Shown here: positions 30,756 through 57,412 of the stretch, piece after piece
Layout of the letters: each line of letters starts with the position of its first letter
Position numbering within the stretch: position 1 is the first letter of the stretch
Assembly: GCF_002087085.1 (NCBI RefSeq)
Contig: NZ_MWQY01000003.1
Location: 62,001-126,000 of the forward strand
DNA length: 64,000 nucleotides
Reading direction: 5' to 3'
Program-made: the position numbers and the translations under genes
The notes under the pieces: model-generated
What the model saw: only the letters and a program-made list of their open reading frames with translations
What the model was told of the DNA's origin: nothing
Databases searched by the model: none

Positions 30756-31997
30756 ATGCCCCGATACCGCGATTCAGACTATACAATTTACCCGCGGAAA
30801 TTCAAAGACAAAACCGTATGGTACTACTACGCCTATGTCGACGGGGTGCGGCAACCTGGAAAATCAACCAGCATAGGCTACACGCGGGAACGTGATAGGG
30901 CGAAAACCAGAAAGCAGGCAGAGGGGAAAGTCCGGGAATTGCTGGAATACGGGAAAGGGCTTTCCGGGCCTACCCTGCGCCAGTGGGTCGAACAGCGCAA
31001 TTTCTGGGACTGGCACAGGTCGGATTATATCCGGGGAATACTGGCCCGGTCGCCGAAAGATAAACCGGGGATCACACAAAGTTATTGCCGTGATGCTCAG
31101 CGGGTGACGGAAAGCAAAATCCTGCCCTACCACGGCGATAAACAGATTGACAGAATCACCGCGATGGACTGCGAGGATTTGCTTTTCGAGTGGCAGGCAA
31201 CCGGGCGGGCGAATAAGACGGTAAATAACTGGAAATCGGTCTATTCAACAATCCTGGGTGAATACGAAAGGGTCCAGTTAATGAAGGACGCGCGCTCCCT
31301 GTACCGCAACCCGTGGCGGCAGGTTCGCCCGTTGGCCGTGGAAAAAAATAAGCGTGGGGGGCTCTCGCTCGATGAGGCCCGCCGGCTACTTGAGGTACCT
31401 GTTGACGATAAGTACAGCGCGGTATATTACCCCGCCATGAAGCTTGCTTTTATGACGGGGCTCCGTATTTCCGAGGTCTGCGGCATTGTCTCCGGGGACG
31501 TTAAGGATGTCGAGGTCAAACGTGGGGATCGGGTGCTTACGATGAGTTACCTGGAAATTGACCAGCAGTACAACCAAAAAATGAAGCGCCGTACACTGGT
31601 AAAAGACAAAGAGGTCCGGCAGATACCTATCACCCCGGGGATGCGCAAAGAGTTGCAGCCGTTCATGGGGAAAAAAGATCAGTACCTTTTCAGCTTCCAT
31701 CCGCGCCGGGAAATTCCGATTACTGCTAACCGTCTGCGGGACTGGTTTTATAAGCGCCTTGAATCGGTCGGGATAGGCGAGGAAGAACGAAAGAAGCGGA
31801 ATATCGTTTTCCATTCTACCCGCCGGTTCTTTAATACGCTTTTACGCCGTGCCCATGTTGACGATACAATCATCAGGCGGTTTACCGGTCACGATTCAGA
31901 GGCAATGACAGAGCACTATACGGATTACATTGTCCAGGATTTGCCGCTCATTGAACAAGCCCAGCGGAAATTCTTGGAAGGAAAAATCAAGGAGTGA
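30756..31997 (+). CDS. int: Tyrosine recombinase / phage integrase
   Basis: N-terminal arm-binding-like region; catalytic R (TGLRISE), HxxR (FHSTRR), GH and Y (MTEHY). Confidence 0.93.
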   Translation: MPRYRDSDYTIYPRKFKDKTVWYYYAYVDGVRQPGKSTSIGYTRERDRAKTRKQAEGKVRELLEYGKGLSGPTLRQWVEQRNFWDWHRSDYIRGILARSPKDKPGITQSYCRDAQRVTESKILPYHGDKQIDRITAMDCEDLLFEWQATGRANKTVNNWKSVYSTILGEYERVQLMKDARSLYRNPWRQVRPLAVEKNKRGGLSLDEARRLLEVPVDDKYSAVYYPAMKLAFMTGLRISEVCGIVSGDVKDVEVKRGDRVLTMSYLEIDQQYNQKMKRRTLVKDKEVRQIPITPGMRKELQPFMGKKDQYLFSFHPRREIPITANRLRDWFYKRLESVGIGEEERKKRNIVFHSTRRFFNTLLRRAHVDDTIIRRFTGHDSEAMTEHYTDYIVQDLPLIEQAQRKFLEGKIKE

Positions 31998-32349: not shown

Positions 32350-33159
32350 TTATTTCTGCTCTTCCGTCAGACATAGATATTCTCTCCTTGCATAGTGTTT
32401 AATCGGCATCAGAAAAGGCCGGATAAATGCTTCCCTGGATTTCTGGTCAATTTCAATTAGGCTGATACCGAAATCATATTTCCACGTTCTAAGCTTCCGG
32501 GTAAAGCTGGACTGCCGCGGGCCTCTCATTTGCAGAGCGGGGGCAATGTAGACGATACGCATAAAGCCGCGCCTGGAGTCTGCTGTCTCGACTTTAAAAC
32601 AATAATGATCGTGAGCTCTGAGCAGGATGTCAGCTGACTGGTAATCTTCGAATTCAGCCTGCAAAATATCGTTTATCAATTCTTTCTGCATTTGCGTTTG
32701 CTGGCCGTAGGGGATATCGCTTCTCCCGACTACATGCCGGACGTGGATCTTTCTGCCATAGACTTCAAGCCTCAATTCGTCGTGGGCCTTGAGTCCGAAA
32801 GCGCCAGCTAAAATGTCCTCATACGCTGTATCACCGTCAGTGTGGAAACCGGTTCCCTTGACGATATGTATGCGGTCAGCTTTCGGCAGGCTGATTATCT
32901 GCTCAGCCATCCGGCACTGTTCGCCGATATCTGTTGTCAGGTGTGATGTGGTTTCTTTTTTTCCGGGGCCGTCGATTGCGTCGCCGTTGACAATTAAATC
33001 ATCAACTGGGCCTATCTGCTCGACAATTGACTGGTAAAAATGCCATGCGGGAATTTGCCAACTGGTGCAATCGTTCCTGTGCCAATCCGGAGGCGTTAAT
33101 CCGAGCAAGTGCCCGCAGTGCATATCGTTGATCAAAAGAGTCCTGTGGTATCTCGGCAT
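32350..33159 (-). CDS. Calcineurin-like metallophosphoesterase
   Basis: DMHCG, NGDAIDG, GTGFH, RH, AHDH. Confidence 0.85.
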   Translation of the reverse strand: MPRYHRTLLINDMHCGHLLGLTPPDWHRNDCTSWQIPAWHFYQSIVEQIGPVDDLIVNGDAIDGPGKKETTSHLTTDIGEQCRMAEQIISLPKADRIHIVKGTGFHTDGDTAYEDILAGAFGLKAHDELRLEVYGRKIHVRHVVGRSDIPYGQQTQMQKELINDILQAEFEDYQSADILLRAHDHYCFKVETADSRRGFMRIVYIAPALQMRGPRQSSFTRKLRTWKYDFGISLIEIDQKSREAFIRPFLMPIKHYARREYLCLTEEQK

Positions 33160-33162
33160 AGG

Positions 33163-33591
33163 CTACTTTTTAAGCGCATTCCTCAGATCGCGCATTTCGG
33201 TTGTAAAGTGTTCAAACTGGCTTGACCACATCTGGAAAAGTTTCGTCTGTTCTTTCTCAAAGGCGGCTTTCCATTCGATATGATTATCCCTGAGACTGCC
33301 AAGCGACTGCGCAAAGGTGTCCATATATTTTGACAGGTTATCGACGTTGCGGGTAAGGTCCGTTATCTTGGCGCCTAATTCATCTTTCAGGACGTCAACT
33401 TTCCCGTCAATCTCGGATATGTCGTTTTCAATTTCAACGCGATTTTCCTCCAAGTTGCGGATCCGTGGCTCAAGGCCGGCTACGACCTTTTCGATTGTCG
33501 AGAGCATCAGCCAGGATTTGATTATCAACGCGATTGAGGCTATAAGCGTAACGGGTATTCCGATAGCAACAAGTTGATCGATAAATTCCAT
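33163..33591 (-). CDS. Membrane-anchored coiled-coil protein (holin/XhlA-like candidate)
   Basis: One N-terminal TM helix followed by heptad repeats. Confidence 0.5.
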   Translation of the reverse strand: MEFIDQLVAIGIPVTLIASIALIIKSWLMLSTIEKVVAGLEPRIRNLEENRVEIENDISEIDGKVDVLKDELGAKITDLTRNVDNLSKYMDTFAQSLGSLRDNHIEWKAAFEKEQTKLFQMWSSQFEHFTTEMRDLRNALKK

Positions 33592-33604: not shown

Positions 33605-33988
33605 CTACACTGCAACAATTTTATAAACAAAAAAGATCAGCTCCATGGTGGTTGGCCGATTGTTTCCGAGCGTGGTATCTATCTCGCCGCGAATCGAAAG
33701 ACGCCTTTCCGCTTTGGCAATTTTTACGCCCTGCTCAATGGTAAAAACATCAGCATCCTCTGCGGTCAAATCGTCTCCTTCGAGATTAACAATAACCGGG
33801 TTGGCAGAATCTACGGCCACATCTTCCCGACTGTTTTTCACATTCCCGTTTTTGTCGGTCAGCGTCCATGTGACAGTGCCAGCATTCGGGGTTGTTGCCG
33901 CCTTCGCTTCATCCCTGAAAGTAAACTCAGGCGAATAGCTACTCCCTGCCGGGACTGACACACGGTCTATCTGGTAGGCGTTCGGCAT
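33605..33988 (-). CDS. Virion accessory Ig-fold protein (BppU-like adaptor candidate)
   Basis: Beta-rich 127 aa; coupled to the fibre module. Confidence 0.45.
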   Translation of the reverse strand: MPNAYQIDRVSVPAGSSYSPEFTFRDEAKAATTPNAGTVTWTLTDKNGNVKNSREDVAVDSANPVIVNLEGDDLTAEDADVFTIEQGVKIAKAERRLSIRGEIDTTLGNNRPTTMELIFFVYKIVAV

Positions 33989-34429
33989 TTAGTCCTCCGT
34001 GATATCCAGTTCACCAGCTCCGAATTCGGGTGTTATGCCGTTTGATACATTCAGGGTTGCCGAAAGAGCGCCAGAGTATAGGAGCTTGCCGGTTCCGGTT
34101 TCGGAAGTCCCGATGCCGAAGTATGTAATCGCGTTTGTTCCTCCGGTACACGCCCCGAAAGTTATAGCCGCAGCATTGGCCGCAGCGTTCCCGGTAACGG
34201 TCCAGCCGCCGGAAGTACGAGCAACCGAGACGCGACCATATCCGGTATAGTCCGCTTCCGACGTTGACTGGTTCCCCGCCTCTCCTGGGTCCGCAGTATG
34301 CAGACTGACGTAAAGCACCCCGGCAGCAGATGATCCACGCAGTCCGGTAGCATCGCCGACGTTTGCAATATTCGTATTGTTAAGCAGCAGCAGTAAAAGC
34401 TCATTCTCAAAGGTATTGGATTTGCTCAT
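33989..34429 (-). CDS. Small phage fibre-associated structural protein
   Basis: LYVSLHTADPGE, YTGYGRVSV, GKLLYSGAL; resembles a widespread ~140-aa phage family often annotated as tail fibre protein. Confidence 0.65.
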   Translation of the reverse strand: MSKSNTFENELLLLLLNNTNIANVGDATGLRGSSAAGVLYVSLHTADPGEAGNQSTSEADYTGYGRVSVARTSGGWTVTGNAAANAAAITFGACTGGTNAITYFGIGTSETGTGKLLYSGALSATLNVSNGITPEFGAGELDITED

Positions 34430-34442
34430 TTCATCCCCTCAC

Positions 34443-36821
34443 TTAATTCAAGTTGCGGCCCCGTACGGATGCCGTTATTCCTGTTCGCAAAACAGAGCAA
34501 GCAATACCGGTGCCCTGCCGCGTAAACTCAATTGTGATTTCCCCTATCGGGATATTTGCCCCGTCGCGGAGTGTACCGGTTAATGTTGCGACGCCTGCCG
34601 CCTGCCCTGATAAAGCGCCGACACCGGAAAGCGTACCGGTGATGGTAACCGTACCGGCTGACAGGCCAGATAATGCGCCTTTTGCTTGTAAAGTCCCGGT
34701 GACGACCGAAGAACCGGCCGCAACTCCTTGTAGGTTTCCGGTCGGTGCCGCGTTGTGGAGAGTACCGGAGGCAATACACGACCCCTCGGATAACCCGTTC
34801 AGTGATCCGACGCCGAAAAGGAGCGCTGTAATATCGCACGTACCGGCCGCAGAACCGGAGAGAGATCCAGTACCAGAGAGAATTGCCGAGACGGTCGCAA
34901 GCCCGTAAGCTGATCCAGACAAACTACCAGTGCCGGTCAGGACGCCGGAAAGAACGGATGCCCCTTCGGAGGCCCCGGACAATGCACCTGTGCCGGTAAG
35001 AGTACCCGATGCCGTGGACGTGCCCTCCGATGTGCCAGAGATTGCGCCTGATCCTCCGCCCTCGGTGCGATAGATAAAATCAACGTATGTTGTGTAGGTA
35101 GAATCCCCGTCGTCCTCAGTGTAAAGCACCGGAAAATAGTCAGCGTTGGATGGGAGGACCGGAGCTACATTCGGGTGTCCGCTGGGTGCAGAGTCATTGA
35201 CAATTACCTCAGCGCTCCATCCAGCATCATACGATCTGCGGCATATATCGCCGTCACTGTTGACATATAGACAGTAGACAACCCCGTCATCCTGGTAGCC
35301 GATTGCGGGTTCAGAATTAAACGTACCGGGAGTTGCGAGCGTAACCGGACTACTCCACGAGTTCCCCCATGTTTTATGAGCATGCCGGATAACGTACGTT
35401 CCATCGACCTGATCTGCCCAGACTACATGTATAGTGCCGTCACTATCGATAGTAGCTCCGAACTGCCGGGTGAGAGCGTCACTTGACGCAGTTGTAATGT
35501 AATCAGTGTCAGCGTCAAAACTGTCTACGCCGTCCCAACGATACAGATAAAATCTACATCCGCCCGTCCTCTGCTCATAGACAACAAGCGCGGGCCTGCC
35601 GTCTGCAACGACCATCCCCACGCGATGCTCAGTATCAAACGTGTCTCCGGTGTTATAGGTAGCTGTAAACGTCTCACCGTTATCGCCGGAATAGTGCACA
35701 TAGATAAGGTCTGCTCCGGACTGCGAAACAACCCGATCTGATATCCATAGATTTGTACCGTCTGCGACCATGCCTCCGCACGACCCAGTATTACCTGCCC
35801 CCCATGGATTAAGAGCGGCGTCGTCGGCACTGACATGGTGCGCTCCGAGGTAGACTGAGGCAAAAAACTTGCGGTATGTAATTCCACCGGCACCGTTACG
35901 ATCAGCTGTATGCAAATATCCGGCAGAATCAATCCATACTGTAGTATGATAGTTAAAATCAAAATCGCCGACCGGGTGCCATGTCGCGCCCCAGTCGTTG
36001 GAGAAAAAAATGTCGTTGCCGGTCGCCTGCACCACTGCCCAGATATTCCAGGGGTACGTCTGATGAGGGATTATTTTGTATCGTGGAAGGGCCAGCGTCG
36101 CATCGTCTGTTACATCAGTCGCAAGAGGTACGCGTCCTGTCGGTGTTGCCGGCTCTGTTGTTTTAAGGGCATCGTCAGGAGTTCCACTTGTCGGGTTATC
36201 TCCGCTGTTGAGCGTATATGTGCCACTGAGCGTGATCCCGCCCTCGTCATCGATAATGTCGCCTGCGAATGGACAGTGTACGATCAGATCAGTAGTCGAG
36301 ATATTCTGAGGATCAACACCGGCAAGGTATGCATCCGCCTCAGCTGGAGTTAAAACTCTGTCCCAGATAGCAAGCTGTGCAAGCGATCCGTCAAAATATG
36401 ATCCGGGAGAAGAGTCGTTAAAACGCCCAAGAGCTAATTGATTAACGTTATCAGGCGTTAGTCCGTTGCTACCAGAGACAACTTCAATTTCACCGTCTGT
36501 CCCCATTAAACGGAGTGTCGTGTCATCGGCCTCGAAAATTATGACTACCCTGCGCCATACGCCGGTAGCTATTGTGCCGGTACTACGGACATTATTTATC
36601 ACACTATCACGGGCGCCAGCTTCGATTACATTGCCCTCACCGTGATTAAAGTAGATGTACCCCAACCAGTCTGCTGATTGACTCGTATTTGCGATGCAAA
36701 ATAGTGTCCCGTCTGATAGACTGTCAAGTTTAAATGACAGTGCGACGGTAAAAGGGTAACCAGTTACCGGAGTTGAGCTATCTATGTATTGTGAGCTGCC
36801 AGCGTCAAACTGTATACCCAT
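34443..36821 (-). CDS. Putative receptor-binding/adhesin protein: LamG-like domain, BNR/propeller domain, 20-aa Gly repeats
   Basis: Start moved to MGIQFDAG (SD GAGG); LamG-like YFDGSLAQLAIWDRVLT; Asp-boxes SNDWGATW and SGDNGETF; C-terminal repeats. Confidence 0.75.
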   Translation of the reverse strand: MGIQFDAGSSQYIDSSTPVTGYPFTVALSFKLDSLSDGTLFCIANTSQSADWLGYIYFNHGEGNVIEAGARDSVINNVRSTGTIATGVWRRVVIIFEADDTTLRLMGTDGEIEVVSGSNGLTPDNVNQLALGRFNDSSPGSYFDGSLAQLAIWDRVLTPAEADAYLAGVDPQNISTTDLIVHCPFAGDIIDDEGGITLSGTYTLNSGDNPTSGTPDDALKTTEPATPTGRVPLATDVTDDATLALPRYKIIPHQTYPWNIWAVVQATGNDIFFSNDWGATWHPVGDFDFNYHTTVWIDSAGYLHTADRNGAGGITYRKFFASVYLGAHHVSADDAALNPWGAGNTGSCGGMVADGTNLWISDRVVSQSGADLIYVHYSGDNGETFTATYNTGDTFDTEHRVGMVVADGRPALVVYEQRTGGCRFYLYRWDGVDSFDADTDYITTASSDALTRQFGATIDSDGTIHVVWADQVDGTYVIRHAHKTWGNSWSSPVTLATPGTFNSEPAIGYQDDGVVYCLYVNSDGDICRRSYDAGWSAEVIVNDSAPSGHPNVAPVLPSNADYFPVLYTEDDGDSTYTTYVDFIYRTEGGGSGAISGTSEGTSTASGTLTGTGALSGASEGASVLSGVLTGTGSLSGSAYGLATVSAILSGTGSLSGSAAGTCDITALLFGVGSLNGLSEGSCIASGTLHNAAPTGNLQGVAAGSSVVTGTLQAKGALSGLSAGTVTITGTLSGVGALSGQAAGVATLTGTLRDGANIPIGEITIEFTRQGTGIACSVLRTGITASVRGRNLN
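34560..35048 (-). repeat. Eight tandem ~20-aa coding repeats, approximate consensus G[AS]LSGxxxGxxxxxGxLxGx
   Basis: GAISGTSEGTSTASGTLTGT / GALSGASEGASVLSGVLTGT / GSLSGSAYGLATVSAILSGT etc. Confidence 0.85.
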
Positions 36822-36844
36822 AAGTTCCTCAGGTTCCTCCTGCC

Positions 36845-37294
36845 CTACATCCCCGAATCCCGCAAGCCCTGTATTTTCTTTAAGTCCGTCTCCTCTTGCC
36901 ACGGGAAATACCCGAAAGGGCCGTCTTGAGTGACGGGTACCTCCTCGGTAGAATATGCGAGCGATGAATAGGTTACATTCCCGCCGCCATCGGTGTGTTT
37001 GTATCTCAGGGCGACATACCAAGGGACTCTCGGATAGAGTGCAATCTGCATTTGTGTTGCTGTGGTTATGCCGAAGAAAGTCAGGTTTTCAATCGGCTGA
37101 ACTTCAATGTCGCTTCCGGGATATCCGTAGACTTCATATTCAATCATATCCCCCGGGAGGAATGGATTTCCGTCTGCGTCCTCAATTATCGCGTTCCATT
37201 CCAATGTCGGATGTGAATTGTAAAATACCTGCTCCTGCGAAAAAGCGAAAAATAAAAGAAGCGTAAAAATCAAAACGAATAAAATCTTTTTCAT
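36845..37294 (-). CDS. Exported FN3/Ig-like protein
   Basis: Sec signal MKKILFVLIFTLLLFFAFS; TLEWNA...YEVY...WYVALR pattern. Confidence 0.65.
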   Translation of the reverse strand: MKKILFVLIFTLLLFFAFSQEQVFYNSHPTLEWNAIIEDADGNPFLPGDMIEYEVYGYPGSDIEVQPIENLTFFGITTATQMQIALYPRVPWYVALRYKHTDGGGNVTYSSLAYSTEEVPVTQDGPFGYFPWQEETDLKKIQGLRDSGM

Positions 37295-37458
37295 GACATA
37301 ATCTCCCTAATTAAAATCAATCCAGCGGTTGCCATAGATGCGGCAATACCGACGGTGTTCCCAATGCTTCCCGGATCGCCTCCGGTCAGCACAAAAACAA
37401 TCACGCAAACAATCGCACAAGCAAGCGCGCTCCTATTCACTATCTTTTTTATTTTCAT
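37291..37458 (-). CDS. Small two-TM protein (holin candidate)
   Basis: SD GAGGAG; MKIKK then two hydrophobic segments; follows the spanin pair. Confidence 0.55.
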   Translation of the reverse strand: MKIKKIVNRSALACAIVCVIVFVLTGGDPGSIGNTVGIAASMATAGLILIREIMS

Positions 37459-37729
37459 ATTCTCCTCGTATGCGAAAATATTTTTCTTCCGTTGCTCGAA
37501 CATCCAGGTAATATTCGGCAATCTGAATCCACAGCTCAGATGGTATTGTCACCGTCTGGCCGTCCTCTGAATATTTGACCCCGAAAGGATCAGGCGGCCT
37601 GGGAAAATCAATCTCCGGCGGGAGTATCGTTTCCGTCACTGTCTGCGGCGAGCTTATGCATGATGTCAGTAGCAGACCGAGCAGGATGATCGCTATTGCG
37701 AATCTTCCGCTTTTTTTTAGCAGTGTCAC
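37433..37729 (-). CDS. Outer-membrane spanin (Rz1-like lipoprotein)
   Basis: Lipobox LTSC, Pro-rich LPPEIDFPRPPDP; starts inside the i-spanin gene with its own GGAGG. Confidence 0.7.
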   Translation of the reverse strand: MTLLKKSGRFAIAIILLGLLLTSCISSPQTVTETILPPEIDFPRPPDPFGVKYSEDGQTVTIPSELWIQIAEYYLDVRATEEKYFRIRGEYENKKDSE

Positions 37730-37925
37730 GGTTTACCTCCTCAATTGCGTGTATTATGTGATCCCTACGCCTCACCTCTTCGGTTAGCCTGTGGACTTCC
37801 TTCCGGTGTTCCCGGCGCTCAATGTCGCGCTCTTTGACTATTCCGGCGGTATGTTTAAGCTGTTTTATCCAGAGGAAAAATCCGCCCCCTGAAAGCAAGG
37901 TTGCAATTAAAGCCCATGTCAACAC
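37608..37925 (-). CDS. Inner-membrane spanin (Rz-like)
   Basis: N-terminal TM helix plus coiled coil; overlaps the lipoprotein gene. Confidence 0.7.
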   Translation of the reverse strand: MLTWALIATLLSGGGFFLWIKQLKHTAGIVKERDIERREHRKEVHRLTEEVRRRDHIIHAIEEVNRDTAKKKRKIRNSDHPARSATDIMHKLAADSDGNDTPAGD

Positions 37926-37926
37926 T

Positions 37927-38253
37927 TTATGCCTCCCATGTGCATTGACCCGCTACCGCTCGCCACGTATCGCCGTATTCGCGGTTGTGAAGAGTTACAG
38001 TTAATTTGACATTTCGTAGCAGCAGGTGGTAATGGTCATAATCAAAGGTCTCAAACTCGCGGACCATTTCGTCAGCCTCGAAGATATAAAGCATGTTGTC
38101 GGCTGGTTGCCAGATAGGGACAACTGGTTCCGGCTCAGGCTCAGGGATAATTTCTGGCTCATCGATTGCCACTGGAGCAGTTTCCAACTCCATCGGCTGT
38201 GCGCAAGCTGACAGGATCAGCGCAAGGCTAATCAATTTTAACAATGTGGTCAT
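37927..38253 (-). CDS. Lipoprotein with Pro/Glu linker and small C-terminal domain
   Basis: Lipobox LSAC; EPEIIPEPEPEP linker. Confidence 0.75.
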   Translation of the reverse strand: MTTLLKLISLALILSACAQPMELETAPVAIDEPEIIPEPEPEPVVPIWQPADNMLYIFEADEMVREFETFDYDHYHLLLRNVKLTVTLHNREYGDTWRAVAGQCTWEA

Positions 38254-38443
38254 AACCGGTTTCCCGCTTGAGGATTATCGCCCTGAGTTTTACGTTCTTC
38301 AAAATCAAGTCTCTGTTTTCCTCGGTCACTTCGACGGACTTCACCTCTTCTAAGATTTCACGTTGCTGGTCAACCGTCTCGCCTTCTACGTCGACCGGCA
38401 CCGTTTCATATTCGCCGGTTTTTTTCAAAATCTTCGCTATCAT
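38228..38443 (-). CDS. Small tail-fibre-associated protein
   Basis: SD AGGAG; directly downstream of the tail fibre gene. Confidence 0.6.
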   Translation of the reverse strand: MIAKILKKTGEYETVPVDVEGETVDQQREILEEVKSVEVTEENRDLILKNVKLRAIILKRETGYDHIVKID

Positions 38444-38452
38444 AAAATCTCC

Positions 38453-39511
38453 TTATGCTACGTATGAGCGGCCCCACAGATACATGTAGGCTGCTATGTT
38501 TCTGGGCCTGGTCTCACCGTCGGTTGTTGCCGAGGTGCGGGCGTTGGGCGACCCTGAAGAATCTAAAGAAACCAAGAATCTATTATAGCTACCTGAAGTA
38601 GCAGCAACCCCATCTGCAATGGCTGTCTGGTAAAAAGCGCCAGTAGCGGGTGCAATAGCTGATCCAGACGCTACAATAACGTCTCCCGTTATCCTCTGCA
38701 TCTGATCGAGCTTCCGAAAACCGCTTACCCTGTCCGACCCCTCTGACATGATTGCGTATCCGTCAACGGGGAAAAGTCTCGCCGTGGTTGTCGACCCTGC
38801 GACCCGGTGCCGGTAGAACGAGGCGACGGCTGTCACTCCGCCGGAATTGTCGGATGCTGCATAGGCGAAAGATATCGTTCTGGATGCTGCGTCAACGTCG
38901 GTAATGGCGTAATCCCCCGCGGCAATGTCTCCAATAGCCGATGCAAGCGTGATGGTCTGCCAGTTTCCATATCCGCCATGTGCCACGGTGTCTTCCGACA
39001 GGACTCCAAGGATTGCGAGCTCGGCGGTAGTGTTGGCAAAGGTCAGTGTTGCAACGTTCGAGACTATCGCCCAATTGGTGACGTCAAACTGGTATTTCTC
39101 CCCCGTTTTGTTGTGCATGTAATAAGCGGGTCGCGCCCTAAGTACCGGCACAAGGTCGGGCCAGTTGGTCGCGGAAATATCAAGATGGTCTTCGATACTG
39201 GACAGGCACACCGCAGGGTTGAAATCTTCAGGGTTGTCTTTATCGAAGGCGGCCGGGGCTTCGTATTCCTCGGAGAAAAAAACCTCTCCAAGCTTTTTAC
39301 CGTATTTAATCGCCATTCCTTTTATTGCCGATAGAATGTATGTATTCGATCCGTCGGCCTCGGCAATTGAAAATTCATCTTGAACGCCGATAAGCTCCCG
39401 CTGTACGTCGTTCGCCCATTGAGCGGTGACAACCGTTCCGTCGGGGTTTGTTATCGGGTCGTAGTCTGCAAACTCATTTGATACATGCCCTGGTCCTGCT
39501 ATTTTTCTCAT
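38453..39511 (-). CDS. Tail fibre protein
   Basis: Baseplate-attachment N-terminus (GTVVTAQWANDVQREL); fibre-tip motifs DQMQRITG and ETRPRNIA. Confidence 0.85.
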   Translation of the reverse strand: MRKIAGPGHVSNEFADYDPITNPDGTVVTAQWANDVQRELIGVQDEFSIAEADGSNTYILSAIKGMAIKYGKKLGEVFFSEEYEAPAAFDKDNPEDFNPAVCLSSIEDHLDISATNWPDLVPVLRARPAYYMHNKTGEKYQFDVTNWAIVSNVATLTFANTTAELAILGVLSEDTVAHGGYGNWQTITLASAIGDIAAGDYAITDVDAASRTISFAYAASDNSGGVTAVASFYRHRVAGSTTTARLFPVDGYAIMSEGSDRVSGFRKLDQMQRITGDVIVASGSAIAPATGAFYQTAIADGVAATSGSYNRFLVSLDSSGSPNARTSATTDGETRPRNIAAYMYLWGRSYVA

Positions 39512-39514
39512 TGT

Positions 39515-40144
39515 CTACTCCTTGCCTACTTCTGCAAGCCCGGTCACACCGAGCCCTACCATGGCGGTGTCGGTGATACCAAGTACCGTCACGTCATAGA
39601 CCGCCGTATGTGTCAGCGGTGCTATCCTATCTAAGATATTTTGAATTCCGTTAAGGTCATACGGTGTTGAGATTTCGCCGGTGACGCGGTAATAATAGAC
39701 GGGATATGTCCCGTCCATAGCTCCGGCAGGTACCCAAGATTGATAATCGGTCGTTACCATCTTGCCGATCATGCCGATACCTACCTGGTTAATCGGTTCT
39801 ATTTCCACCTCTTCGATGGTTACGTTCGGATACGCAACCTGTAAGACAGCCTCGATGTATTCTTTCGATTGGCCACCGATCGCAGTAAATGCCTGCTTTG
39901 CCCGCTTCCGTAGTGTCGCCGTCGATTGTGTCGGGTCATAGGTAATTCCGAGCTGTGCATACCATTGCTGTAGCGTATCGGTGGCGGTGCCTGGGTTGCT
40001 CTCGGTGATAACGTCCATTAGGAATTCCCGGAGGCGTTCCAAGGAAAGCGCGAGGGCGTCAACCAACTGTCCGATATTTCCGAACAGTTGCCACGGGTGG
40101 CCAGGTGGGAAAAGGCTTCTCAATGTCGAGCGCATTATACCCAT
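39515..40144 (-). CDS. Baseplate wedge protein (Mu gp48/DUF2313-like)
   Basis: LFPPGHPW, ESNPGTA..TLQQW, GGQS, APLTHT; follows baseplate J. Confidence 0.8.
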   Translation of the reverse strand: MGIMRSTLRSLFPPGHPWQLFGNIGQLVDALALSLERLREFLMDVITESNPGTATDTLQQWYAQLGITYDPTQSTATLRKRAKQAFTAIGGQSKEYIEAVLQVAYPNVTIEEVEIEPINQVGIGMIGKMVTTDYQSWVPAGAMDGTYPVYYYRVTGEISTPYDLNGIQNILDRIAPLTHTAVYDVTVLGITDTAMVGLGVTGLAEVGKE

Positions 40145-41220
40145 GATAATGTCCTCAAAACGGCAAGTTCTGAATCATCCAGTTCATACGATGCGATAGA
40201 AGAGCCTCCCGCATTCTTCAGTACCACCGTGGCGACCAGGGCCCCGGCGTCGGCGGTGATTTTTGCGATCTCAACTTGACTGACGGTGTGTAGGTCGTTC
40301 GGCTGATCGTCGTACTGCAATGGACGGCGGCTGTACATATAATTTTCAATTGCCGTTTCAATCGCCGCTTTTACTGCTGCGGTGTTCGGTGATAAATTGC
40401 TGATGTCAACGTCAAAGTTTAATTCACTAAACGCCACTGCAGACACTTGAGCATTAAGCGGTTTTCGTTCCGGGTCGCTGACGTAGTTTTCTACCTCGGT
40501 CAATTTCGTCGAGTCCGGGATTCTGTCTGCTGGGTCATCAACGTCCAGGAGCGGATAAATATTTACAAAACCGGCCGACGGCTGAAAAGCGAAAGCCTCG
40601 GCGATGCCGGAAACCTCAGTTGCCCATAGAACATAGTCCGCAACGGATCCGCCCTGTGGTATGTTCTGCTGACGGTAAAGGATGCGGGAACGAAAAGCCG
40701 AAAGCGTTTCCTGATCTGCGCCGGACTGCGTGACCGAGGCAACGGTAATTGTATTATCAACTCCTGCCTGCGGGGTGACGATTGAAAGGGTGTCGGCAAC
40801 ATCAAGGTGTACCGCTTCTCCGCCTTCGAGTGATTCAAGTTTTAGCGTGCCGGTGGTGGTAAAGGTGAGCGCATCTGTGACCTGATAAACATTTCCGCTA
40901 TCCTGGAAAAGTGTTCCTATTGCAATGGTTGCCCCTGATCCTGTGACGGTCGCAGTGCCTATCCATTTTTGAGCCGGCGTCCTTGTTAGTCCGTATTCTT
41001 GCCCCCGGAGTGATAGGGCGTCATCGTCCATCGTTGCTGTAAAAATCTGGTCGTATAACCATGCCCCGACCCGGTAGAGAAGATGAAGCGCCCCGGCTAA
41101 TGCGGCAGCGAGTACACGCCAGACAGCGCGGGGAAGCAGTGGGGCTTCCTGCCCGGTTTGCGTTTCAATGTCTGATAATATCTGGTCTCTGATTTCCGCG
41201 ATGGTAGGAATCGTTATCAT
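40135..41220 (-). CDS. Baseplate J / Mu gp47-like protein
   Basis: GADQETLSAFRSR, PQGGSVADYVLWA. Confidence 0.9.
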   Translation of the reverse strand: MITIPTIAEIRDQILSDIETQTGQEAPLLPRAVWRVLAAALAGALHLLYRVGAWLYDQIFTATMDDDALSLRGQEYGLTRTPAQKWIGTATVTGSGATIAIGTLFQDSGNVYQVTDALTFTTTGTLKLESLEGGEAVHLDVADTLSIVTPQAGVDNTITVASVTQSGADQETLSAFRSRILYRQQNIPQGGSVADYVLWATEVSGIAEAFAFQPSAGFVNIYPLLDVDDPADRIPDSTKLTEVENYVSDPERKPLNAQVSAVAFSELNFDVDISNLSPNTAAVKAAIETAIENYMYSRRPLQYDDQPNDLHTVSQVEIAKITADAGALVATVVLKNAGGSSIASYELDDSELAVLRTLSWV

Positions 41221-41621
41221 GCTATTTCAACCTCCTGGGCGTTCCAGTTCAAGGCGTATGCGTATGTTTCAATGTTCTCCGGCTTGACAATTTTCACGCG
41301 TAAATCCAGCCGCCCGCCCGGTTCGATTTCAGCCTCTACTATCACCTCATCCGCAATCCCTGAATCAGTCAGCCATGCGATGGCAGAGCGTACCGATTCG
41401 ATTACATCGTTCCGGGTGTTGACCGTGACAGGGCCATTCATCGCCTGCGGCAGTGTTGACGTGTAGCGTTCGTCTTTCGGCGTTGCGAGATTTCCCCACC
41501 ATGGCCCGGTAAAGATTGACAGGTAAACTGCGTTAAAAAGTCCGTCCGTCATTTCCGGCTTGCCATTTACTATGGTTATTTCACCGCCGTCACGGGTCGG
41601 TGTAATTTTCAGGTCTGCCAT
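41217..41621 (-). CDS. Mu gp46-like baseplate protein
   Basis: AVYLSIF...WWGN, AIAWLTDSGIA. Confidence 0.82.
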   Translation of the reverse strand: MADLKITPTRDGGEITIVNGKPEMTDGLFNAVYLSIFTGPWWGNLATPKDERYTSTLPQAMNGPVTVNTRNDVIESVRSAIAWLTDSGIADEVIVEAEIEPGGRLDLRVKIVKPENIETYAYALNWNAQEVEIA

Positions 41622-42118
41622 TATCCCCCCGTCTTGACCGTTGTGGTCTCTGCTGCTGAGATATCCAGCGTGATGCTTCCGGGAGTGCCGGAGCCGTCAA
41701 GTTTTGTTCCGAGTACCGTATTAAGCGCGGTAATCATTCCATGTACTGCGGTGTCGAGTTCATCGAAAGTGACCAGCCGTTTATCTGATCCGTTAATTTC
41801 AATCGTGCCGTCAGCCTTGAGATGTATCCGCGCCGCCTCAGTATCGCCTGCGGTGTTGGTTGAGTAGACAACCGTCTCCCCTGCCGCCGGGTTAATCTCG
41901 ACCCTGTAATTATGCGCGGCTACTACAATGCGCCGGTTGCCTAATGGAATTTCGATAACCTGATCATTAACCGTCGGCGCTGATGCAATCCCCGGATTAT
42001 GGTACATCTCAAGTTCTCGTTCAGCGATTGCCGTCTGCGTTTTAATGAGTACCGCTTTTCCCGGAGCAGTTCCCCGGCGGGCGTACCGGATGCCGGTTAC
42101 TTTGCTTAATCCTCCCAC
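41621..42118 (-). CDS. Baseplate spike (Mu gp45-like)
   Basis: GIASAP, GETVVYS, IHLKADGTIEI; position after the hub gene. Confidence 0.75.
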   Translation of the reverse strand: MGGLSKVTGIRYARRGTAPGKAVLIKTQTAIAERELEMYHNPGIASAPTVNDQVIEIPLGNRRIVVAAHNYRVEINPAAGETVVYSTNTAGDTEAARIHLKADGTIEINGSDKRLVTFDELDTAVHGMITALNTVLGTKLDGSGTPGSITLDISAAETTTVKTGG

Positions 42119-43149
42119 GGCATATCCTCCGGGTATGTGTTCGAGTAGGTACCGGGAAGCGTCAGATCAAGCGTAGTTATCCTGCCTGATGATTCGTCCA
42201 TCGAAAATGTGGCCTGCTTAATTAAAAAGAGGGATGGCTTAATGATAAAAGCGCCGGGGGCCTTGAGCCTGATTACTTCCCCTGCCCGCCAGAATGCGCC
42301 GTCATGTTTCCATCCTTTGACGATTACCTGTGGGGTGTAACTTGATATCCACGCGCGGGATCGTGCGAGTTTCGCCGCTGCCGAATAGTCCGCGCTCTCC
42401 TGCTCCGGCTGTATAATTTTCTTCCCACGGATTGCCGGGGCCATGCGCCGATCCGTGACGGTTGCCGATATGTCGGGATTTCCGTCAGATGAGGCGACAA
42501 TGATGTATTCGTGATGCAGGGTGGTAACGTCATGACCGGCTGAAACAGATACAACATTCTTTTCCCCCTCGATGATGTCGGCCACCGGTGCACTGTCTGC
42601 GATGTTGACAAACTCAAGGCGGCCGGTTGCGGTCGGTCGGCCGAATAAACCATTAGCCGCAGCGAGTTGAGATAAGAATTCATAAACCGTTTGCCCCGGT
42701 GTAATCTGCACATCGGCAAGCGGGGCGGTATCGGGGATGGCCTTCACTGTGTAGGGGTGCGCGATTTTTGCGGCTATCTGATTAAAGGTGAGCCCGGTAA
42801 ACTGAAAAGGCGGGCCTGCTGACCAGTCGATAAGTACGCCGGTGATTGACCGGCCCTGAATATTCATTGACCGATTCTCAGGGTCTGTCACAAGAGACAG
42901 CGCTTCAAGGTAGCCGGTAATCAATTTTTCATCGTCCGCCCAGACTACAACCTGCTGAGACTGATACGGGCGAAAGCGCCGTATATTATCTGGCGTTGGA
43001 TTCCAGGGAACGGAAAATGAAAAAGCATCTGCGCCTGAGTCAATCGAGCGGATAACTGACAAGCCAGACCAGCCGGTTATCCTTTCGCCACGGTTTACCT
43101 GCCCTACCTGATCGCCTCCGATTTCAATTATGATCCGGGGGTCACTCAT
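42106..43149 (-). CDS. Baseplate hub (Mu gp44-like)
   Basis: GWSGLSVIRSID, GRSITGVLIDWS, PGQTVYEFL; start moved to MSDPR. Confidence 0.85.
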   Translation of the reverse strand: MSDPRIIIEIGGDQVGQVNRGERITGWSGLSVIRSIDSGADAFSFSVPWNPTPDNIRRFRPYQSQQVVVWADDEKLITGYLEALSLVTDPENRSMNIQGRSITGVLIDWSAGPPFQFTGLTFNQIAAKIAHPYTVKAIPDTAPLADVQITPGQTVYEFLSQLAAANGLFGRPTATGRLEFVNIADSAPVADIIEGEKNVVSVSAGHDVTTLHHEYIIVASSDGNPDISATVTDRRMAPAIRGKKIIQPEQESADYSAAAKLARSRAWISSYTPQVIVKGWKHDGAFWRAGEVIRLKAPGAFIIKPSLFLIKQATFSMDESSGRITTLDLTLPGTYSNTYPEDMPWED

Positions 43150-44383
43150 ACCAGCGGACCTCCCGGCCATTCGGAATAGTTAGAATTTCATTTCCGGTCA
43201 GGCGGTTATAGGCGATAAACTCAGACAGGGTATCTTCGAGATTGTCTATATCGGAATATAATTCGTAGACCAGCGCCAGGGGGTTTATCGACCGGTCAAG
43301 GGTTCGACGCTTTTCAGTCGGCAGGTTAAGCGCCCGGTCAACAAGGTTTGAAATTGCGCGGGCTGATGCCTGTTCTGCTGCGGCCCTTGATGCATAATCC
43401 GATTTGAAATTTCCCGCTGCTTCTATCGCTTCAACTGCTGTGGAGATATTGGCATTGAGCGCGTTCAGCGTGTCGATAATATCGGCCGCTTGAGAGCGTG
43501 TTGTTATCGTGCCGTCAATCGTCGCCTCGGCTGCGGCTGCCTGTATCGCATTTGCTTGAGCGGTATTGATAAGGCCGACCATTTCGCCGTATGCAAGCGT
43601 CTGGCTTTCAAAACCTGCGATTATAGTTGAATAGGTCGCGCTGTAGCCTTCAATCTTCGATTGTACATTTGTCACCGTTCGGGCCGGGAGACGATAGAGC
43701 GTCAACAACTCCTGCATCAGATCAGCGGGGGCAGTTACAAGATCGTCAATATTATTTGTGACCGAAGTGATAACCGCTTCTATGTCTGCCTGCAATCCAT
43801 CGACCGCCGCAGAGACAGAAGCAAAAGCCGTTTTGAACCGGGCCATGTTTCTGACAACGGCATCCTTTAGTCCGGCTATGCCTTTCGGGTCGGTCAGTTC
43901 TTCGCCGTCAAGTCCGTCGGTGATTGCGGATGCGGCAGTATCGGCATCGGCGGTAATCTGTAAATCGGGGGCAGCTTCGATTGTCGGGTATTCATCGGCG
44001 TCCTCGGGTGCGGTAATAAAATCAACTTCAAAAACCGCCCGTCCTGCGCCGTTGACAAATTCTTCTGTCTGCGTTCTGGGATTAGGGAGTACGCGGACAT
44101 TTCCCCACCGCGGATGATTCAGAAATCCAGGGCCGGTTTCAAGGAGTGCGTCCCAGAAGCGATCACCTTCGAGATCGTAATCTTGCCCGGTAATGTAGCA
44201 GCGTACCGGATAGGTAATTGTCCGCTGTCCTAGGTCCTGGACGGTTCCACCTTTCGCGCCGGGGCTCTCTGTTACCGGTGCTTTCTTCCCGCCGCTTCGT
44301 GACAGGTCGTCAAATTGCAGGGTAAAAGATTTACCGGAAGGTGAGGTATAAACCATGTCGCGGAGGCGGTCATTAAAACTCAT
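43142..44383 (-). CDS. Mu gp43/N-like DNA circularisation / tail protein
   Basis: VQDLGQR, GPGFLNHPRWG, C-terminal LVYELY; follows the tape measure gene. Confidence 0.85.
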   Translation of the reverse strand: MSFNDRLRDMVYTSPSGKSFTLQFDDLSRSGGKKAPVTESPGAKGGTVQDLGQRTITYPVRCYITGQDYDLEGDRFWDALLETGPGFLNHPRWGNVRVLPNPRTQTEEFVNGAGRAVFEVDFITAPEDADEYPTIEAAPDLQITADADTAASAITDGLDGEELTDPKGIAGLKDAVVRNMARFKTAFASVSAAVDGLQADIEAVITSVTNNIDDLVTAPADLMQELLTLYRLPARTVTNVQSKIEGYSATYSTIIAGFESQTLAYGEMVGLINTAQANAIQAAAAEATIDGTITTRSQAADIIDTLNALNANISTAVEAIEAAGNFKSDYASRAAAEQASARAISNLVDRALNLPTEKRRTLDRSINPLALVYELYSDIDNLEDTLSEFIAYNRLTGNEILTIPNGREVRWYE

Positions 44384-47368: not shown

Positions 47369-48844
47369 TTAATTGAGATAGCCCCATTCGAGCTTGACGG
47401 CGACGATACGGAGACCTGCGCTTGCAATGTCGGGAATTAGAAGGTCAATCCGTCCAGGGTTGTCACCGTTAATTACTGCGGTTGTTCCAGCCTTGATTGT
47501 GTCAAGGTCGGTGGAAAGTCCACGGGCTCCCCAATCTTCGATGAGGCCGAAAGCGCGAGCTTTAACCATGTTCGGGGTGACAGCGTAAGAAGGAGCCGCC
47601 CCGCCACCATTTGCAACCACTACGCCGCGATCAAAGGGCGATACAAGGAACGCCTGCTCGAGTGCGTAGATTTTGAATTGCAAGTTCGGGATGATGATGG
47701 TAAAGCGCCAGTCTTCCGTGTCCGCTCCGGCTGCCGTGGTAGTCCGCGTAGTGCAAAGGTCGCCGAAAGTAACGGTTCCGTCTTCCTGGTTGAAAGTGTG
47801 AGACCCACCCGCCTTTACTGCGGTGTCCCGCTCGGTGTAGGTCAGATCGTCATTGCCAGCGAGTACTCCGGGGATGGTCAGCGTTTTGACCGGTCGTCCT
47901 GGGGTCGCCTGCTGATACCTGGCAAAGGTAGCGGTTGCGGAAGCGGCAATCATATACGCCGGGGTGCTGGATCCGTGGACGGGGACGAAGGAAGTCCATT
48001 CGGAATTCCGATCATCTAGGGCGGTGATAAAGTTCGCATAAGTATCGGTGTATCCCACAATCCCGACAAAAGGCCGTTTGACACCGGGTGCTACCCGTGC
48101 GGCTCCTGCGGTTTCGAGTTCGCCGAGGGAAGTGTCATTGTTGTACGGACAGGCGATATCCGTATACCACGTGTTACCAAGGGCCGAGAGTGCGGTTGTC
48201 ATTGCCGGGTCGGTCGCTCCTGCTACAACGTCGCCGATGTCGGTTACTGTCGCAGTCACGCCGCCGGGGGTCTCGTCAGTGTCAAGCCGGTTGATTTCGA
48301 GCTTGATCTGATTTCCGCTTTCGCCTTTCCAGCGGACGGTAAAGGTCACGGTGCCGGTCACATTGGCCGCGGTCACGGGAAGGTCAAGTTTTGCATTGAC
48401 CGCCGCAGCGATGGCGGACCCGATATCATCGGCGCTATCACCGGCTGCAACTGCGACGGGTACACGTACGCCGCCGACATAGACGGCAAGGGTCCCGGCT
48501 TCTGCGGTCGTAACTGAAATTGCAATAGTCCCGGTGGCCGCTACCGCTCCGCCTGCGTCCGCAAGGGGAAGGGCATACACGGGAACGCCGCCGCCGTTGT
48601 CGAGAGCTGAGCCAATCATATTGGCAAGCATGGAGCCGCGCCCGTAGCGATCCCACGCATCTGATTTCGATAGGATCAACTGCGGGGTATTTACGGTCGG
48701 GGATTTCCCGGAGTTGTACTGTCCGGGTACAAGAATCTTTCGGGGGATAACGGCTGAACCGGTTCCCCTTTTGACGGCTTCCTGTTCGACGAAAACGGCC
48801 GAGGCTGCTGCCGTCGGGGAAACCAGATTAAAAGTGATAGACAT
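47369..48844 (-). CDS. Contractile tail sheath protein (Mu gpL-like)
   Basis: YGRGSMLANM, WKGESGN, NPGRIDL. Confidence 0.92.
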   Translation of the reverse strand: MSITFNLVSPTAAASAVFVEQEAVKRGTGSAVIPRKILVPGQYNSGKSPTVNTPQLILSKSDAWDRYGRGSMLANMIGSALDNGGGVPVYALPLADAGGAVAATGTIAISVTTAEAGTLAVYVGGVRVPVAVAAGDSADDIGSAIAAAVNAKLDLPVTAANVTGTVTFTVRWKGESGNQIKLEINRLDTDETPGGVTATVTDIGDVVAGATDPAMTTALSALGNTWYTDIACPYNNDTSLGELETAGAARVAPGVKRPFVGIVGYTDTYANFITALDDRNSEWTSFVPVHGSSTPAYMIAASATATFARYQQATPGRPVKTLTIPGVLAGNDDLTYTERDTAVKAGGSHTFNQEDGTVTFGDLCTTRTTTAAGADTEDWRFTIIIPNLQFKIYALEQAFLVSPFDRGVVVANGGGAAPSYAVTPNMVKARAFGLIEDWGARGLSTDLDTIKAGTTAVINGDNPGRIDLLIPDIASAGLRIVAVKLEWGYLN

Positions 48845-55459: not shown

Positions 55460-57412
55460 TCACCCCTCTAAATAATCCCAGAATTCATGCCATGAGAGGA
55501 CCGTGTCCTCTTCAAGATTTCCGTTTTCTTTTAACACTGCCTCGACGTATTCCCGGTATGCGTAGACCATTGCCAGCGCGTATTTGCGGCAGTCAAGCTG
55601 CTCATTTTTCCCGGTCTGGACCCATTTCAATTTTGCAACACCGCTTTTATCGCGTTCCATGACCCGCTGTTCATTAGTCAACTGGATAAAATGCTGACGC
55701 GGATAATCTGACGGAAAATGGCAATATCCGCGCGGTGTGTTTCCGCTTTCAAACTCGCCTTTTGCGATAAATGAATAAATCTCCTGTTTTAGCAGGTTGT
55801 CATTGACGTCAATACGAAAATGTTTATGCCCTATGCACTCGGTAGGCTGGATATATTTCCGATCCTTGTTCAAATAGGTCTGCCCCATGACAGGATGGAC
55901 GCCAGATTCAAACGTATCGCAGAACGAATACACGGTCTCGGTATTGTACCCTGAGTCAACTCCTGAAAGTGTCGGCTGCATTCCGGCGTATTTCGTGGTA
56001 ATGATTGACCGCAATGCTGACCAGCACGGAGACTCAAGATCGCCGGTATCGCCGGGAATAACCTCATACCGGATTGACCAGCTTTCAAAATCGCGGCCCC
56101 ATGCGACAACTTCACATTCTATGCGGGAATTCTCGCCACCCTGGACGTCTGCGCCAACGGTGATAATCAGCGGTTTCGCGTCTTCTGGAAGTGTGCCGGA
56201 AACGTATGTCTTATTGCGGGATAGTAGCGCCTCAATTTTCGGGCGTCCTCCGTAATCCTCGAAAGGTTCGCCAAGAAAAGTATTTACCCAGTTTTGCATT
56301 TTTAGTTTGGGCTTACCTTCGTGCTTTATTTGCAAGAATTCCACAACGGCATTTTCCCACGAGCGGAAACCGACCGGGGAAAGTAATCCAGGGATGTGGT
56401 AACTCCTCATACTTGGACGCCGTGGTTCCGCAGTTGGTCGCCATTCGCCGCGTGGAAGAAACCAGTCTTTATCCGCGTTCTCCCATTCCCCGCCGCATTT
56501 TTCGCATACGTAGCGGACAGATGATTCTATTATCTGACCGTCATCGTTGTAGGTAGCAATCAGGCGGTCATCTTCGTCATGTTCAAATTTTAATCCTCCA
56601 GGAGTGTCCTTTTCGCCCCATCGTAAAAACTGCATATGCCCGCAGTGCTTACACGGTACAAAGTATTTCCTCTGATCGCCTTCTTTGTAAAGTGAATAGA
56701 TTTTTGAGTTGTGCTTAAATAGTGGAGTGCTTCCCCATAAGATTTTGTAACTCTCGGAAAAAGCATCAACGCGCCGACGTATTAAATAAATTGGATCGCC
56801 TTCTTTTCCAGTGGAATCAGGGAAAGCGTCAACCTCGTCAACGTTTATTTTTTTAAAACTCATTGATCGAAGTTTTGCGCCTGAGTTCGGACCAGCTGCA
56901 ACCAGGAACCCGCCGGGAAATTCTTTCCGAGTTTTTATGTCTCCGGTTTTCCGCTGCCCTTCGCGTTTTGACTGTGCGCCGATCTTGTGACCAATACCGG
57001 AATTATTTATCATTGAGTCAATGCGGAGTTCCATTTGTGTATCGGCAAGTCCAGCGTCCCCGGTTACGTAAAGCATCGGGGCCGGGGCGATGTCGATTGT
57101 GTAGCCTATAAAGTTTTCAATCGCGCCAACGGTGAACATTATCTGTGTACCCTTTAAGACTGCCACCTCATGAATCGGAGAGCTTTCCGAAAGGCTGTCA
57201 ACTATCTCGCGCATATACGGGTTTACGTCGAAACTGTAAGGACCTGGATACGGCGTCAAACCTTCTGACAGCGTTCTATTTTCTTCGGCCCATTCTGAAA
57301 TTAAAACTCGTTCTATTTTGCGCGGAGTTCTTTCTAAAAGCTTAATAAGCCATTCAAGAGATTCGACGCGTTTTTGTTTTGTGAATAATTCGTCTTGAAT
57401 TATTTCAGTCAT
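55460..57412 (-). CDS. Terminase large subunit (lambda GpA type)
   Basis: KGTQIMFT, VDEVD, STP, YFVPCKHCG, NTFLGE, GADVQ, NEQLDC. Confidence 0.95.
   Translation of the reverse strand: MTEIIQDELFTKQKRVESLEWLIKLLERTPRKIERVLISEWAEENRTLSEGLTPYPGPYSFDVNPYMREIVDSLSESSPIHEVAVLKGTQIMFTVGAIENFIGYTIDIAPAPMLYVTGDAGLADTQMELRIDSMINNSGIGHKIGAQSKREGQRKTGDIKTRKEFPGGFLVAAGPNSGAKLRSMSFKKINVDEVDAFPDSTGKEGDPIYLIRRRVDAFSESYKILWGSTPLFKHNSKIYSLYKEGDQRKYFVPCKHCGHMQFLRWGEKDTPGGLKFEHDEDDRLIATYNDDGQIIESSVRYVCEKCGGEWENADKDWFLPRGEWRPTAEPRRPSMRSYHIPGLLSPVGFRSWENAVVEFLQIKHEGKPKLKMQNWVNTFLGEPFEDYGGRPKIEALLSRNKTYVSGTLPEDAKPLIITVGADVQGGENSRIECEVVAWGRDFESWSIRYEVIPGDTGDLESPCWSALRSIITTKYAGMQPTLSGVDSGYNTETVYSFCDTFESGVHPVMGQTYLNKDRKYIQPTECIGHKHFRIDVNDNLLKQEIYSFIAKGEFESGNTPRGYCHFPSDYPRQHFIQLTNEQRVMERDKSGVAKLKWVQTGKNEQLDCRKYALAMVYAYREYVEAVLKENGNLEEDTVLSWHEFWDYLEG

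Follow-up and report, generated by a model that had tools for sequence, protein, structure and literature searches.

We analysed a stretch of 64,000 nucleotides (NCBI RefSeq assembly GCF_002087085.1, contig NZ_MWQY01000003.1, positions 62,001 to 126,000 of the forward strand; hereafter the window, to which coordinates refer unless another locus is named) and found that two neighbouring genes behind the tail fibre of a myovirus-type prophage very probably encode the same small domain, once as a soluble protein and once on a lipid anchor. The fibre gene (352 aa, 38453-39511, minus strand; phrog_9777 tail fiber, E 9e-33) stands after the Mu-type genes gp46, J and gp48 and is directly followed on the same strand by S, the soluble copy, an acidic protein of 71 aa with no signal peptide (38228-38443). 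The next gene encodes LP, a lipoprotein of 108 aa (37927-38253, minus strand), whose reading frame shares 26 nt with that of S. In LP, a lipoprotein signal peptide (residues 1-17, 38203-38253; lipobox LSAC with Cys17, from our reading of the sequence) precedes a disordered acidic Pro/Glu stalk (residues 18-45, 38119-38202; seen in the sequence and in the AlphaFold 2 (AF2) model, where the predicted local distance difference test score (pLDDT) is 49-66), with the Pro/Glu stretch itself at about residues 30-46. The C-terminal domain (residues 46-108, 37930-38118) is the paralogue of S. We are highly confident that S and these C-terminal 63 residues form one previously undescribed domain family of about 55 residues, and just as confident that, in a few related myovirus-type prophages of Spirochaetia, this family is part of the fibre module. 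As for function, we give a probability of roughly 35% to the reading that LP would be an envelope-located competitor or exclusion protein and S a fibre binder.

In the window, the open reading frames (ORFs) of 71 aa and 108 aa on the minus strand after the fibre, their motifs and the core octapeptides at 38285-38308 (S) and 38002-38025 (LP) are located as given in the original prediction, which had proposed from the letters that the two proteins are paralogous. Its claim that both share the same core spacing is exact inside a 22-residue core, but the upstream EEVKSVE and EMVREFE patches are off by one residue (14 versus 15 residues to the core). In a single BLASTP comparison, residues 42-63 of S aligned with residues 73-94 of LP (9/22 identical, 14/22 similar, E 4e-4), and in Smith-Waterman tests the observed score was reached by 5/5000, 1/5000 and 1/5000 shuffles. 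The S and LP proteins of L003, a metagenome contig that represents the same phage as the IMG/VR locus L006, align in the same register as the window pair (7/22 identical, E 0.012). Taken on their own, however, the window pair and the narrow families are not significant. When every one of the host genome's 55,232 stop-to-stop ORFs was searched, the partner came only third and sixth among non-self matches by phmmer (E 11 and 4.4) and ranked 18th and 37th by BLASTP. Profiles of the narrow families (six S relatives; two or three LP relatives) did not match each other in hhalign (E 0.049, probability 1.1%), and hidden Markov model (HMM) searches with the narrow families ranked the partner 163rd and 18th after self. 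The direct window pair on its own therefore appears borderline, and is suggestive only because the genes are neighbours. Inspection of the octapeptide codons showed differences between S and LP at most synonymous sites, which makes a recent gene conversion of the cores unlikely.

Four close relatives of S were found among 5.8 billion proteins, five in all when L003 is included; an initial search with LP returned none. The gene order of L003 is that of the window: fibre, a 76-aa S, a 91-aa LP, i-spanin and o-spanin. When 401 genomes of the class to which the host belongs (Spirochaetia) were searched with a fibre profile, 7 contained related fibres, the window's own included, and S was found in the same 7/401 genomes. 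A small soluble ORF lies directly 3' of the fibre in all eight loci considered, namely the window, L003 and L013-L018, the latter counted where the 3' end of the fibre was recovered (L017 is identical to L019). These soluble proteins measure 75 aa in L013, 67 aa in L014, 77 aa in L015, 78 aa in L016, 61 aa in L017 and 56 aa in L018, and those of L013 and L016 are plainly of the 71-aa type. In two of the eight loci (L016 and L017) S still follows the fibre with no spanin genes behind. Since S accompanies the fibre even there and occurs in the same genomes, S belongs to the fibre and not to the lysis genes, which bears out the fibre linkage of the soluble copy in the original prediction. Beyond these loci the family is sparse: a narrow S alignment gave 0 confirmed loci in the first genome scan, S was not found in 60 relatives, the LP profile gave no new locus in 92 genomes of the order of G263, and a tblastn search of a collection of isolated phages gave no match for the fibre or for L014_67. 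S has no Pfam match and no PHROG match at E<=0.01, and a scan of 12 members of the S family matched only unnamed PHROGs (best E 0.0053).

The homology becomes significant through intermediate sequences. The soluble proteins of L014 and L015 occupy the S-type position, but their helix ends in the HNRD..W signature of the LP family; L014 also has the S-type N-terminus. Bridge searches were run against the 55,232 genome ORFs plus the family members (55,244 sequences). Starting from the lipoprotein side, an HMM of the LP domain (11 sequences) found L014_67 at E 2.1e-8, L015_77 at 2e-5, L017_61 at 0.011 and L018_56 at 0.058, with the best background match at E 3.2. Starting from the soluble side, the HMM of the 71-aa family found L016_78 (E 4e-18) and L013_75 (1e-4); with both added it found L014_67 at E 3.1e-4, and with L014_67 added in turn, P0015 (0.0026) and W108 (0.032) scored above all background (best 2.7). 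A phmmer search with L014_67 alone returned L015_77 (2.4e-8), P0015 (4.6e-6), P0017 (1.8e-5) and L013_75 (1.4e-4). Alignment of the short S forms with the LP domain extends over both hairpin and helix. The profile-profile comparison that failed with the narrow families succeeded with the broad ones: hhalign of 12 S against 11 LP sequences gave a probability of 95.2% and E 2.5e-8 over 35 columns. Additionally, the S profile picked out the window LP gene at E 3e-5 in a six-frame search of its own 4.2-Mb genome. One reservation is that LP is connected to the 71-aa subfamily by way of two intermediates, at E values near 1e-4 per step, although the match that leads to L014 covers both protein ends. 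Taken together, the intermediates, the broad hhalign comparison, the six-frame search and the tree described below identify S and the C-terminal domain of LP as true paralogues, as had been proposed. Members of the family share a predicted hairpin, a helix that ends in [HLK]-[NTK]-R-[DE] and a short strand within about 55 residues, and searches that start from either form, soluble or lipoprotein, detect the other.

Maximum-likelihood analysis of the domains of 12 S and 11 LP proteins (67 columns) gave a tree with all LP sequences on one side of a single branch (support 93/88), with the S proteins of L014 and L015 nearest the S/LP split. This topology is consistent with a single old duplication followed by the gain of a signal peptide and a stalk, rather than with repeated duplications. 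It is thus highly likely that LP arose once, when a duplicate of S acquired a stalk, of Pro/Glu or PKD type, together with a lipoprotein signal peptide, and was kept in some phages only. We also compared the 22 core columns of S and LP within and between genomes. Within a genome, 9 positions are identical in the window, 7 in L003, 6 in P0004/P0020 and 8 in L015, and the two cross-genome comparisons of the window with L003 gave 2 and 4; the within-genome diagonal sum was the highest of 24 permutations (4 pairs, one of which is a putative pairing). These values give a weak hint that the S and LP cores of one genome co-vary.

The LP-domain profile, searched against 1.84 billion representatives, matched 13 proteins at E<=0.001. 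Apart from P0006 and P0007, which had gone into the profile, there were seven further clear LP relatives (P0009, P0010, P0011, P0012, P0015, P0017 and P0018); P0013, P0014, P0016 and P0019 are long repeat proteins and were set aside on inspection as spurious. A lipobox cysteine was seen by inspection in 11/11 LP-family sequences that extend upstream of the stalk (W108, P0007, P0020, P0021, P0023, P0011, P0012, P0015, P0017, P0018 and the 183-aa protein of L015), so that LP is a real and conserved lipoprotein, as the original prediction had it. In the 183-aa LP of L015 (positions 508-1059 of that locus, minus strand), P0015 and P0023, a PKD/immunoglobulin-like module of about 90 residues lies between the lipid anchor and the domain, replacing or extending the Pro/Glu stalk as if reach from the membrane matters. 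One LP subgroup has the C-terminus G-x-C-T-[WLY] (L003, P0008-P0011 and the window, where the cysteine is residue 104), and the other ends in G-G-G/T without cysteine. Most members of the first subgroup carry a second cysteine after the hairpin, which suggests a disulfide; the window LP has the C-terminal cysteine only. LP occurs in 3/8 fibre loci (window, L003 and L015), always directly after S, and P0004/P0020 and P0003/P0021 are two further, putative S-LP pairs. A decayed second S-LP copy lies in L034 (G257:C293, about 900-1830), where the S remnant has an in-frame TAA, the domain of the PKD-type lipoprotein is frameshifted, and a 419-aa reverse-transcriptase-like ORF adjoins. LP matches no Pfam or PHROG family at E<=0.01.

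In the AF2 model of LP, the signal helix and the disordered stalk precede a confidently predicted C-terminal domain (pLDDT 90-94 over residues 50-100), which consists of a hairpin (strands 54-59 and 62-68; 54-68 overall), a helix (72-93) and a strand (97-101). The model of S shows a hairpin (residues 2-16), an acidic insert, a helix (residues 44-62, 38258-38314, minus strand; pLDDT about 74) and a short C-terminal strand, so that both models agree in the predicted order of elements. It is the helix that forms the 22-residue core common to S and LP, as seen in the BLASTP, AF2 and hhalign results. A Foldseek search with the LP model found nothing at E<=0.001 in pdb and BFVD, and VIA returned only generic two-layer alpha/beta matches (best Z 5.2, an unrelated chain). 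PDB sequence searches with both family profiles gave 0 matches at E<=10, and the ESM Atlas gave no usable lead for LP or L014_67. Whatever its function, the S/LP domain is a new small family, with a confidently predicted fold in the LP form and no known-structure match.

Comparison of the window with L003 reveals which parts of the module change fastest. The fibre is conserved over residues 1-277 (228/277 identical, 82%) and variable in its tip, residues 278-352 (38/75 identical, 51%). S (46% identity) and LP (47%) are, together with the fibre tip, the most diverged; the i-spanin is about 53-54% identical, the o-spanin 59% and baseplate J 83%.

From these observations we propose the following mechanism. 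S would meet the fibre in the cytoplasm, as an assembly partner or as a tip-bound subunit. LP would carry the same binding module across the inner membrane, and its flexible stalk would hold the module in the envelope. Produced late, with the virion and lysis genes, LP would engage whatever ligand S binds. The simplest candidate is the tip of the fibre on related virions; the alternative, should S be a tip adhesin, is the receptor. Attachment to an infected or lysing cell would then be unproductive, and the phage would exclude others with a tethered duplicate of its own fibre partner. The homology of the two copies, the tie of S to the fibre, the fast evolution of S and LP alongside the fibre tip, the envelope location of LP, the hint of S-LP co-variation and the precedents of Llp and Ltp count for this reading. 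Taken as a whole, homology and mechanism together, we judge the explanation to be somewhat short of an even chance. Its more specific form, in which a duplicated fibre-partner module is displayed on the envelope, mimicking what fibre or receptor normally encounters, as self-mimicry for superinfection exclusion or progeny protection, and in which the helix cores of S and LP co-evolve within each phage lineage since both have to fit one fast-changing surface, seems to us rather doubtful.

A number of points weigh against the exclusion reading. LP is absent from 5/8 fibre loci and is therefore dispensable. Co-variation with the fibre tip, a check that the original prediction had suggested, gave an uninformative result: the divergence of S correlates equally with the tip and with the conserved part (Spearman 0.70 each; 15 pairs of 6 loci), which shows nothing specific to the tip. 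The AF2 model of S is poor (mean pLDDT 57). A fibre-binding decoy on cell debris would trap the phage's own progeny, unlike the receptor masking by Llp. The position of LP directly before the spanin genes would fit a lysis role equally well, and its place inside the late operon argues against expression from a repressed prophage. Of the interpretation first offered, then, the paralogy, the lipoprotein and the link of S to the fibre stand, but an exclusion moron expressed in the lysogen is disfavoured. Complex prediction for three copies of fibre residues 200-352 with the LP domain gave scores of 0.00 and 0.00, which, being without controls, are evidence neither way.

The spanin pair directly behind LP, which the original prediction does not mention, offers an envelope or lysis role as the first rival. 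In this explanation, the spanin module would have taken on LP as an accessory, for instance one that binds peptidoglycan or that positions, regulates or assists the spanin complex; LP would then be unconnected with fibres and receptors, and S would stay a fibre chaperone. The start codon of the i-spanin-like gene (105 aa, 37608-37925, minus strand; an N-terminal transmembrane helix and a charged helical region; weak match to phrog_312 Rz-like spanin, E 0.0094) abuts the stop codon of LP. Its 3' part is overlapped in another frame by the gene of an o-spanin-like lipoprotein (98 aa, 37433-37729, minus strand; lipobox LTSC; weak Rz-like spanin matches to phrog_812, E 0.0018, and phrog_456, E 0.006). 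The layout is thus that of spanins, in which the gene of a helical membrane-spanning protein is overlapped by a lipoprotein gene in a different frame, with weak PHROG support (E 0.0018-0.0094). Such an overlapped pair lies behind the fibre module in 6/8 loci (window, L003 at 8484-8961, L013, L014, L015 and L018), and the spanins of Spirochaetia phages may be a divergent, undescribed group. LP stands directly before the pair in all three intact loci that have both S and LP (window, L003 and L015), and o-spanins too are Pro-rich periplasmic lipoproteins. Moreover, LP looks like a late-operon gene, as judged from its overlap with S, its contact with the i-spanin gene, the lack of a compositional break (guanine plus cytosine content) and the lack of any promoter or terminator signal above chance (10 promoter-like sites found versus 9.2 expected); LP is thus probably made late, together with the virion and lysis proteins. 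A promoter-like hexamer pair inside S (38274-38302, minus strand; TTGAAG, 17 nt, GATAAT; 9/12 matches) ends some 20 nt ahead of the start of LP, but as a sign that LP is expressed in the lysogen it is no more than a lead. However, four spanin-bearing loci have no LP (L013, L014 and L018, which are intact, and the other G257 copy), so that spanins work without LP. LP also has no PHROG lysis match, keeps an S-type and not a spanin-like domain, and evolves as fast as the fibre tip. We consider a lysis accessory unlikely on this balance.

Receptor masking in cis is quite unlikely in our estimate. Here S would be a small adhesin on the fibre tip, and LP would display the same receptor-binding module in the envelope and occupy the receptor, a logic comparable to that of Llp and Cor or to receptor interference by viral envelope proteins. 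This explanation is suited by the fibre linkage, by the rapid divergence and by the stalk or PKD spacer, a feature typical of proteins reaching for a target, and the problem of progeny trapping does not arise. However, S is only 56-78 aa long, and no adhesin-like family or fold match was found in Pfam, PHROGs, PDB, Foldseek or VIA. An inhibitor or immunity-type pair, in which the domain would neutralise, for example, a tail-associated enzyme or some other protein of phage or host by means of a soluble copy in the cytoplasm and a lipoprotein copy in the periplasm, we regard as improbable. Two small acidic proteins, one per compartment, do stand directly after a large secreted or assembled protein, and a small acidic protein in that position is the layout of many immunity proteins. 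But the fibre gives only fibre or collar-type PHROG matches with no enzyme or toxin domain, and general scans, which did not include PADLOC, point to no toxin in the neighbourhood. Finally, chance or convergence between amphipathic helices of two unrelated genes, to which the 22-residue extent of the direct match, its genome-wide E of 4-11 and the failure of the narrow profiles lend some colour, is largely refuted already and very improbable, given intermediates at E 2e-8 to 3e-4, the broad hhalign and S-profile results, the alignment of the short S forms over the whole domain and the orthologous L003 pair in the same register.

The proposed competitor role can be set against known systems. 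T5 Llp, a lipoprotein of the outer membrane, acts in exclusion by inactivating the receptor FhuA (PMC9586334), and Streptococcus thermophilus phage TP-J34 has in Ltp an exclusion lipoprotein that is exposed on the surface (PMC3952083). Like Llp and Cor (T1/phi80-type), LP is a small phage lipoprotein near a host-recognition gene, with only S between it and the fibre gene in the window, L003 and L015, and with a plausible anti-adsorption role. Searches of Pfam, PHROGs, PDB, Foldseek and VIA gave no sequence, family or fold match. LP differs in its long stalk or PKD spacer, in its late-operon place before the spanins and in its occurrence in spirochaete phages; LP is furthermore a duplicate of the soluble post-fibre gene, whereas no such paralogy to a fibre partner is reported for Llp. 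With Ltp it would share the logic of a lipid-anchored protein acting on an incoming virion component and not on the receptor, but the two differ in fold family, in the envelope of the host and in where their genes lie; Ltp is a prophage-expressed protein and has no detected homology to LP. In 2013, Bebeacua et al. reportedly identified the incoming tape measure protein as the target of Ltp.

Fibre assembly proteins and tip adhesins such as Mu U, lambda Tfa, T4 gp38 and T4 gp57A are encoded after fibre genes. S resembles them in its place directly after the fibre in a Mu-type baseplate-fibre module and in its strict co-occurrence with the fibre; it is far smaller (56-78 aa) and matches no Pfam or PHROG chaperone family. 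We know of no fibre chaperone with a lipoprotein paralogue, and a literature search, in the portions of text available to it, found no description of an exclusion lipoprotein paralogous to a fibre partner. The two genes after LP are like two-component spanins of the Rz/Rz1 type, unlike LP itself, which carries the S domain.

The prophage that harbours the module occupies about 32 kb to 58 kb of the window on the minus strand. The head end begins with the terminase (55460-57412), followed by the portal, protease and major head genes; the sheath (47369-48844) comes with the tube and tape measure, and the baseplate hub and the Mu-type baseplate genes gp46, J and gp48 (39515-43170) lead to the fibre, all on the minus strand. 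An integrase lies at 30756-31997 on the plus strand. A block at 33605-37521 (minus strand), between the spanins and a tail-anchored coiled-coil gene, is missing from the otherwise syntenic L003 and looks like an inserted second host-recognition cassette. It includes a 76-aa protein that has two hydrophobic stretches, a secreted protein of 149 aa, a 127-aa ORF, an 859-aa LamG-domain protein (PF13385, E 2.4e-13) with a Gly/Ser/Thr/Ala-rich repeat tail, and a Gp80-like protein (PF23140, E 2.5e-18). Next come a 142-aa coiled-coil protein (33163-33591, minus strand) with weak hemolysin (phrog_1193) and holin-type matches (E 0.002-0.004), whose L003 counterpart has a C-terminal membrane helix, and a 269-aa protein (32350-33159, minus strand) that is 79% identical in L003 and has no family match; both may be lysis-related. 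The regions 61284-61874 and 62091-63505 (minus strand) hold a metallo-endopeptidase-type protein, far from the spanins, with endolysin and metallo-endopeptidase PHROG matches (E 2e-19), and, at the early end of the prophage, two adjacent DNA methyltransferase genes (phrog_67).

If fibres or receptors are indeed the target of LP, the fibre module of the phage itself would reveal both where an exclusion lipoprotein came from and what it is specific for, an origin that the available parts of the literature do not describe for Llp, Cor or Ltp. It would also provide a genomic rule for finding such genes, namely a lipoprotein paralogue of a post-fibre gene. For the Spirochaetia, where no isolated phage of the collection matches the fibre or S, the module would offer an entry point to phage-host recognition.

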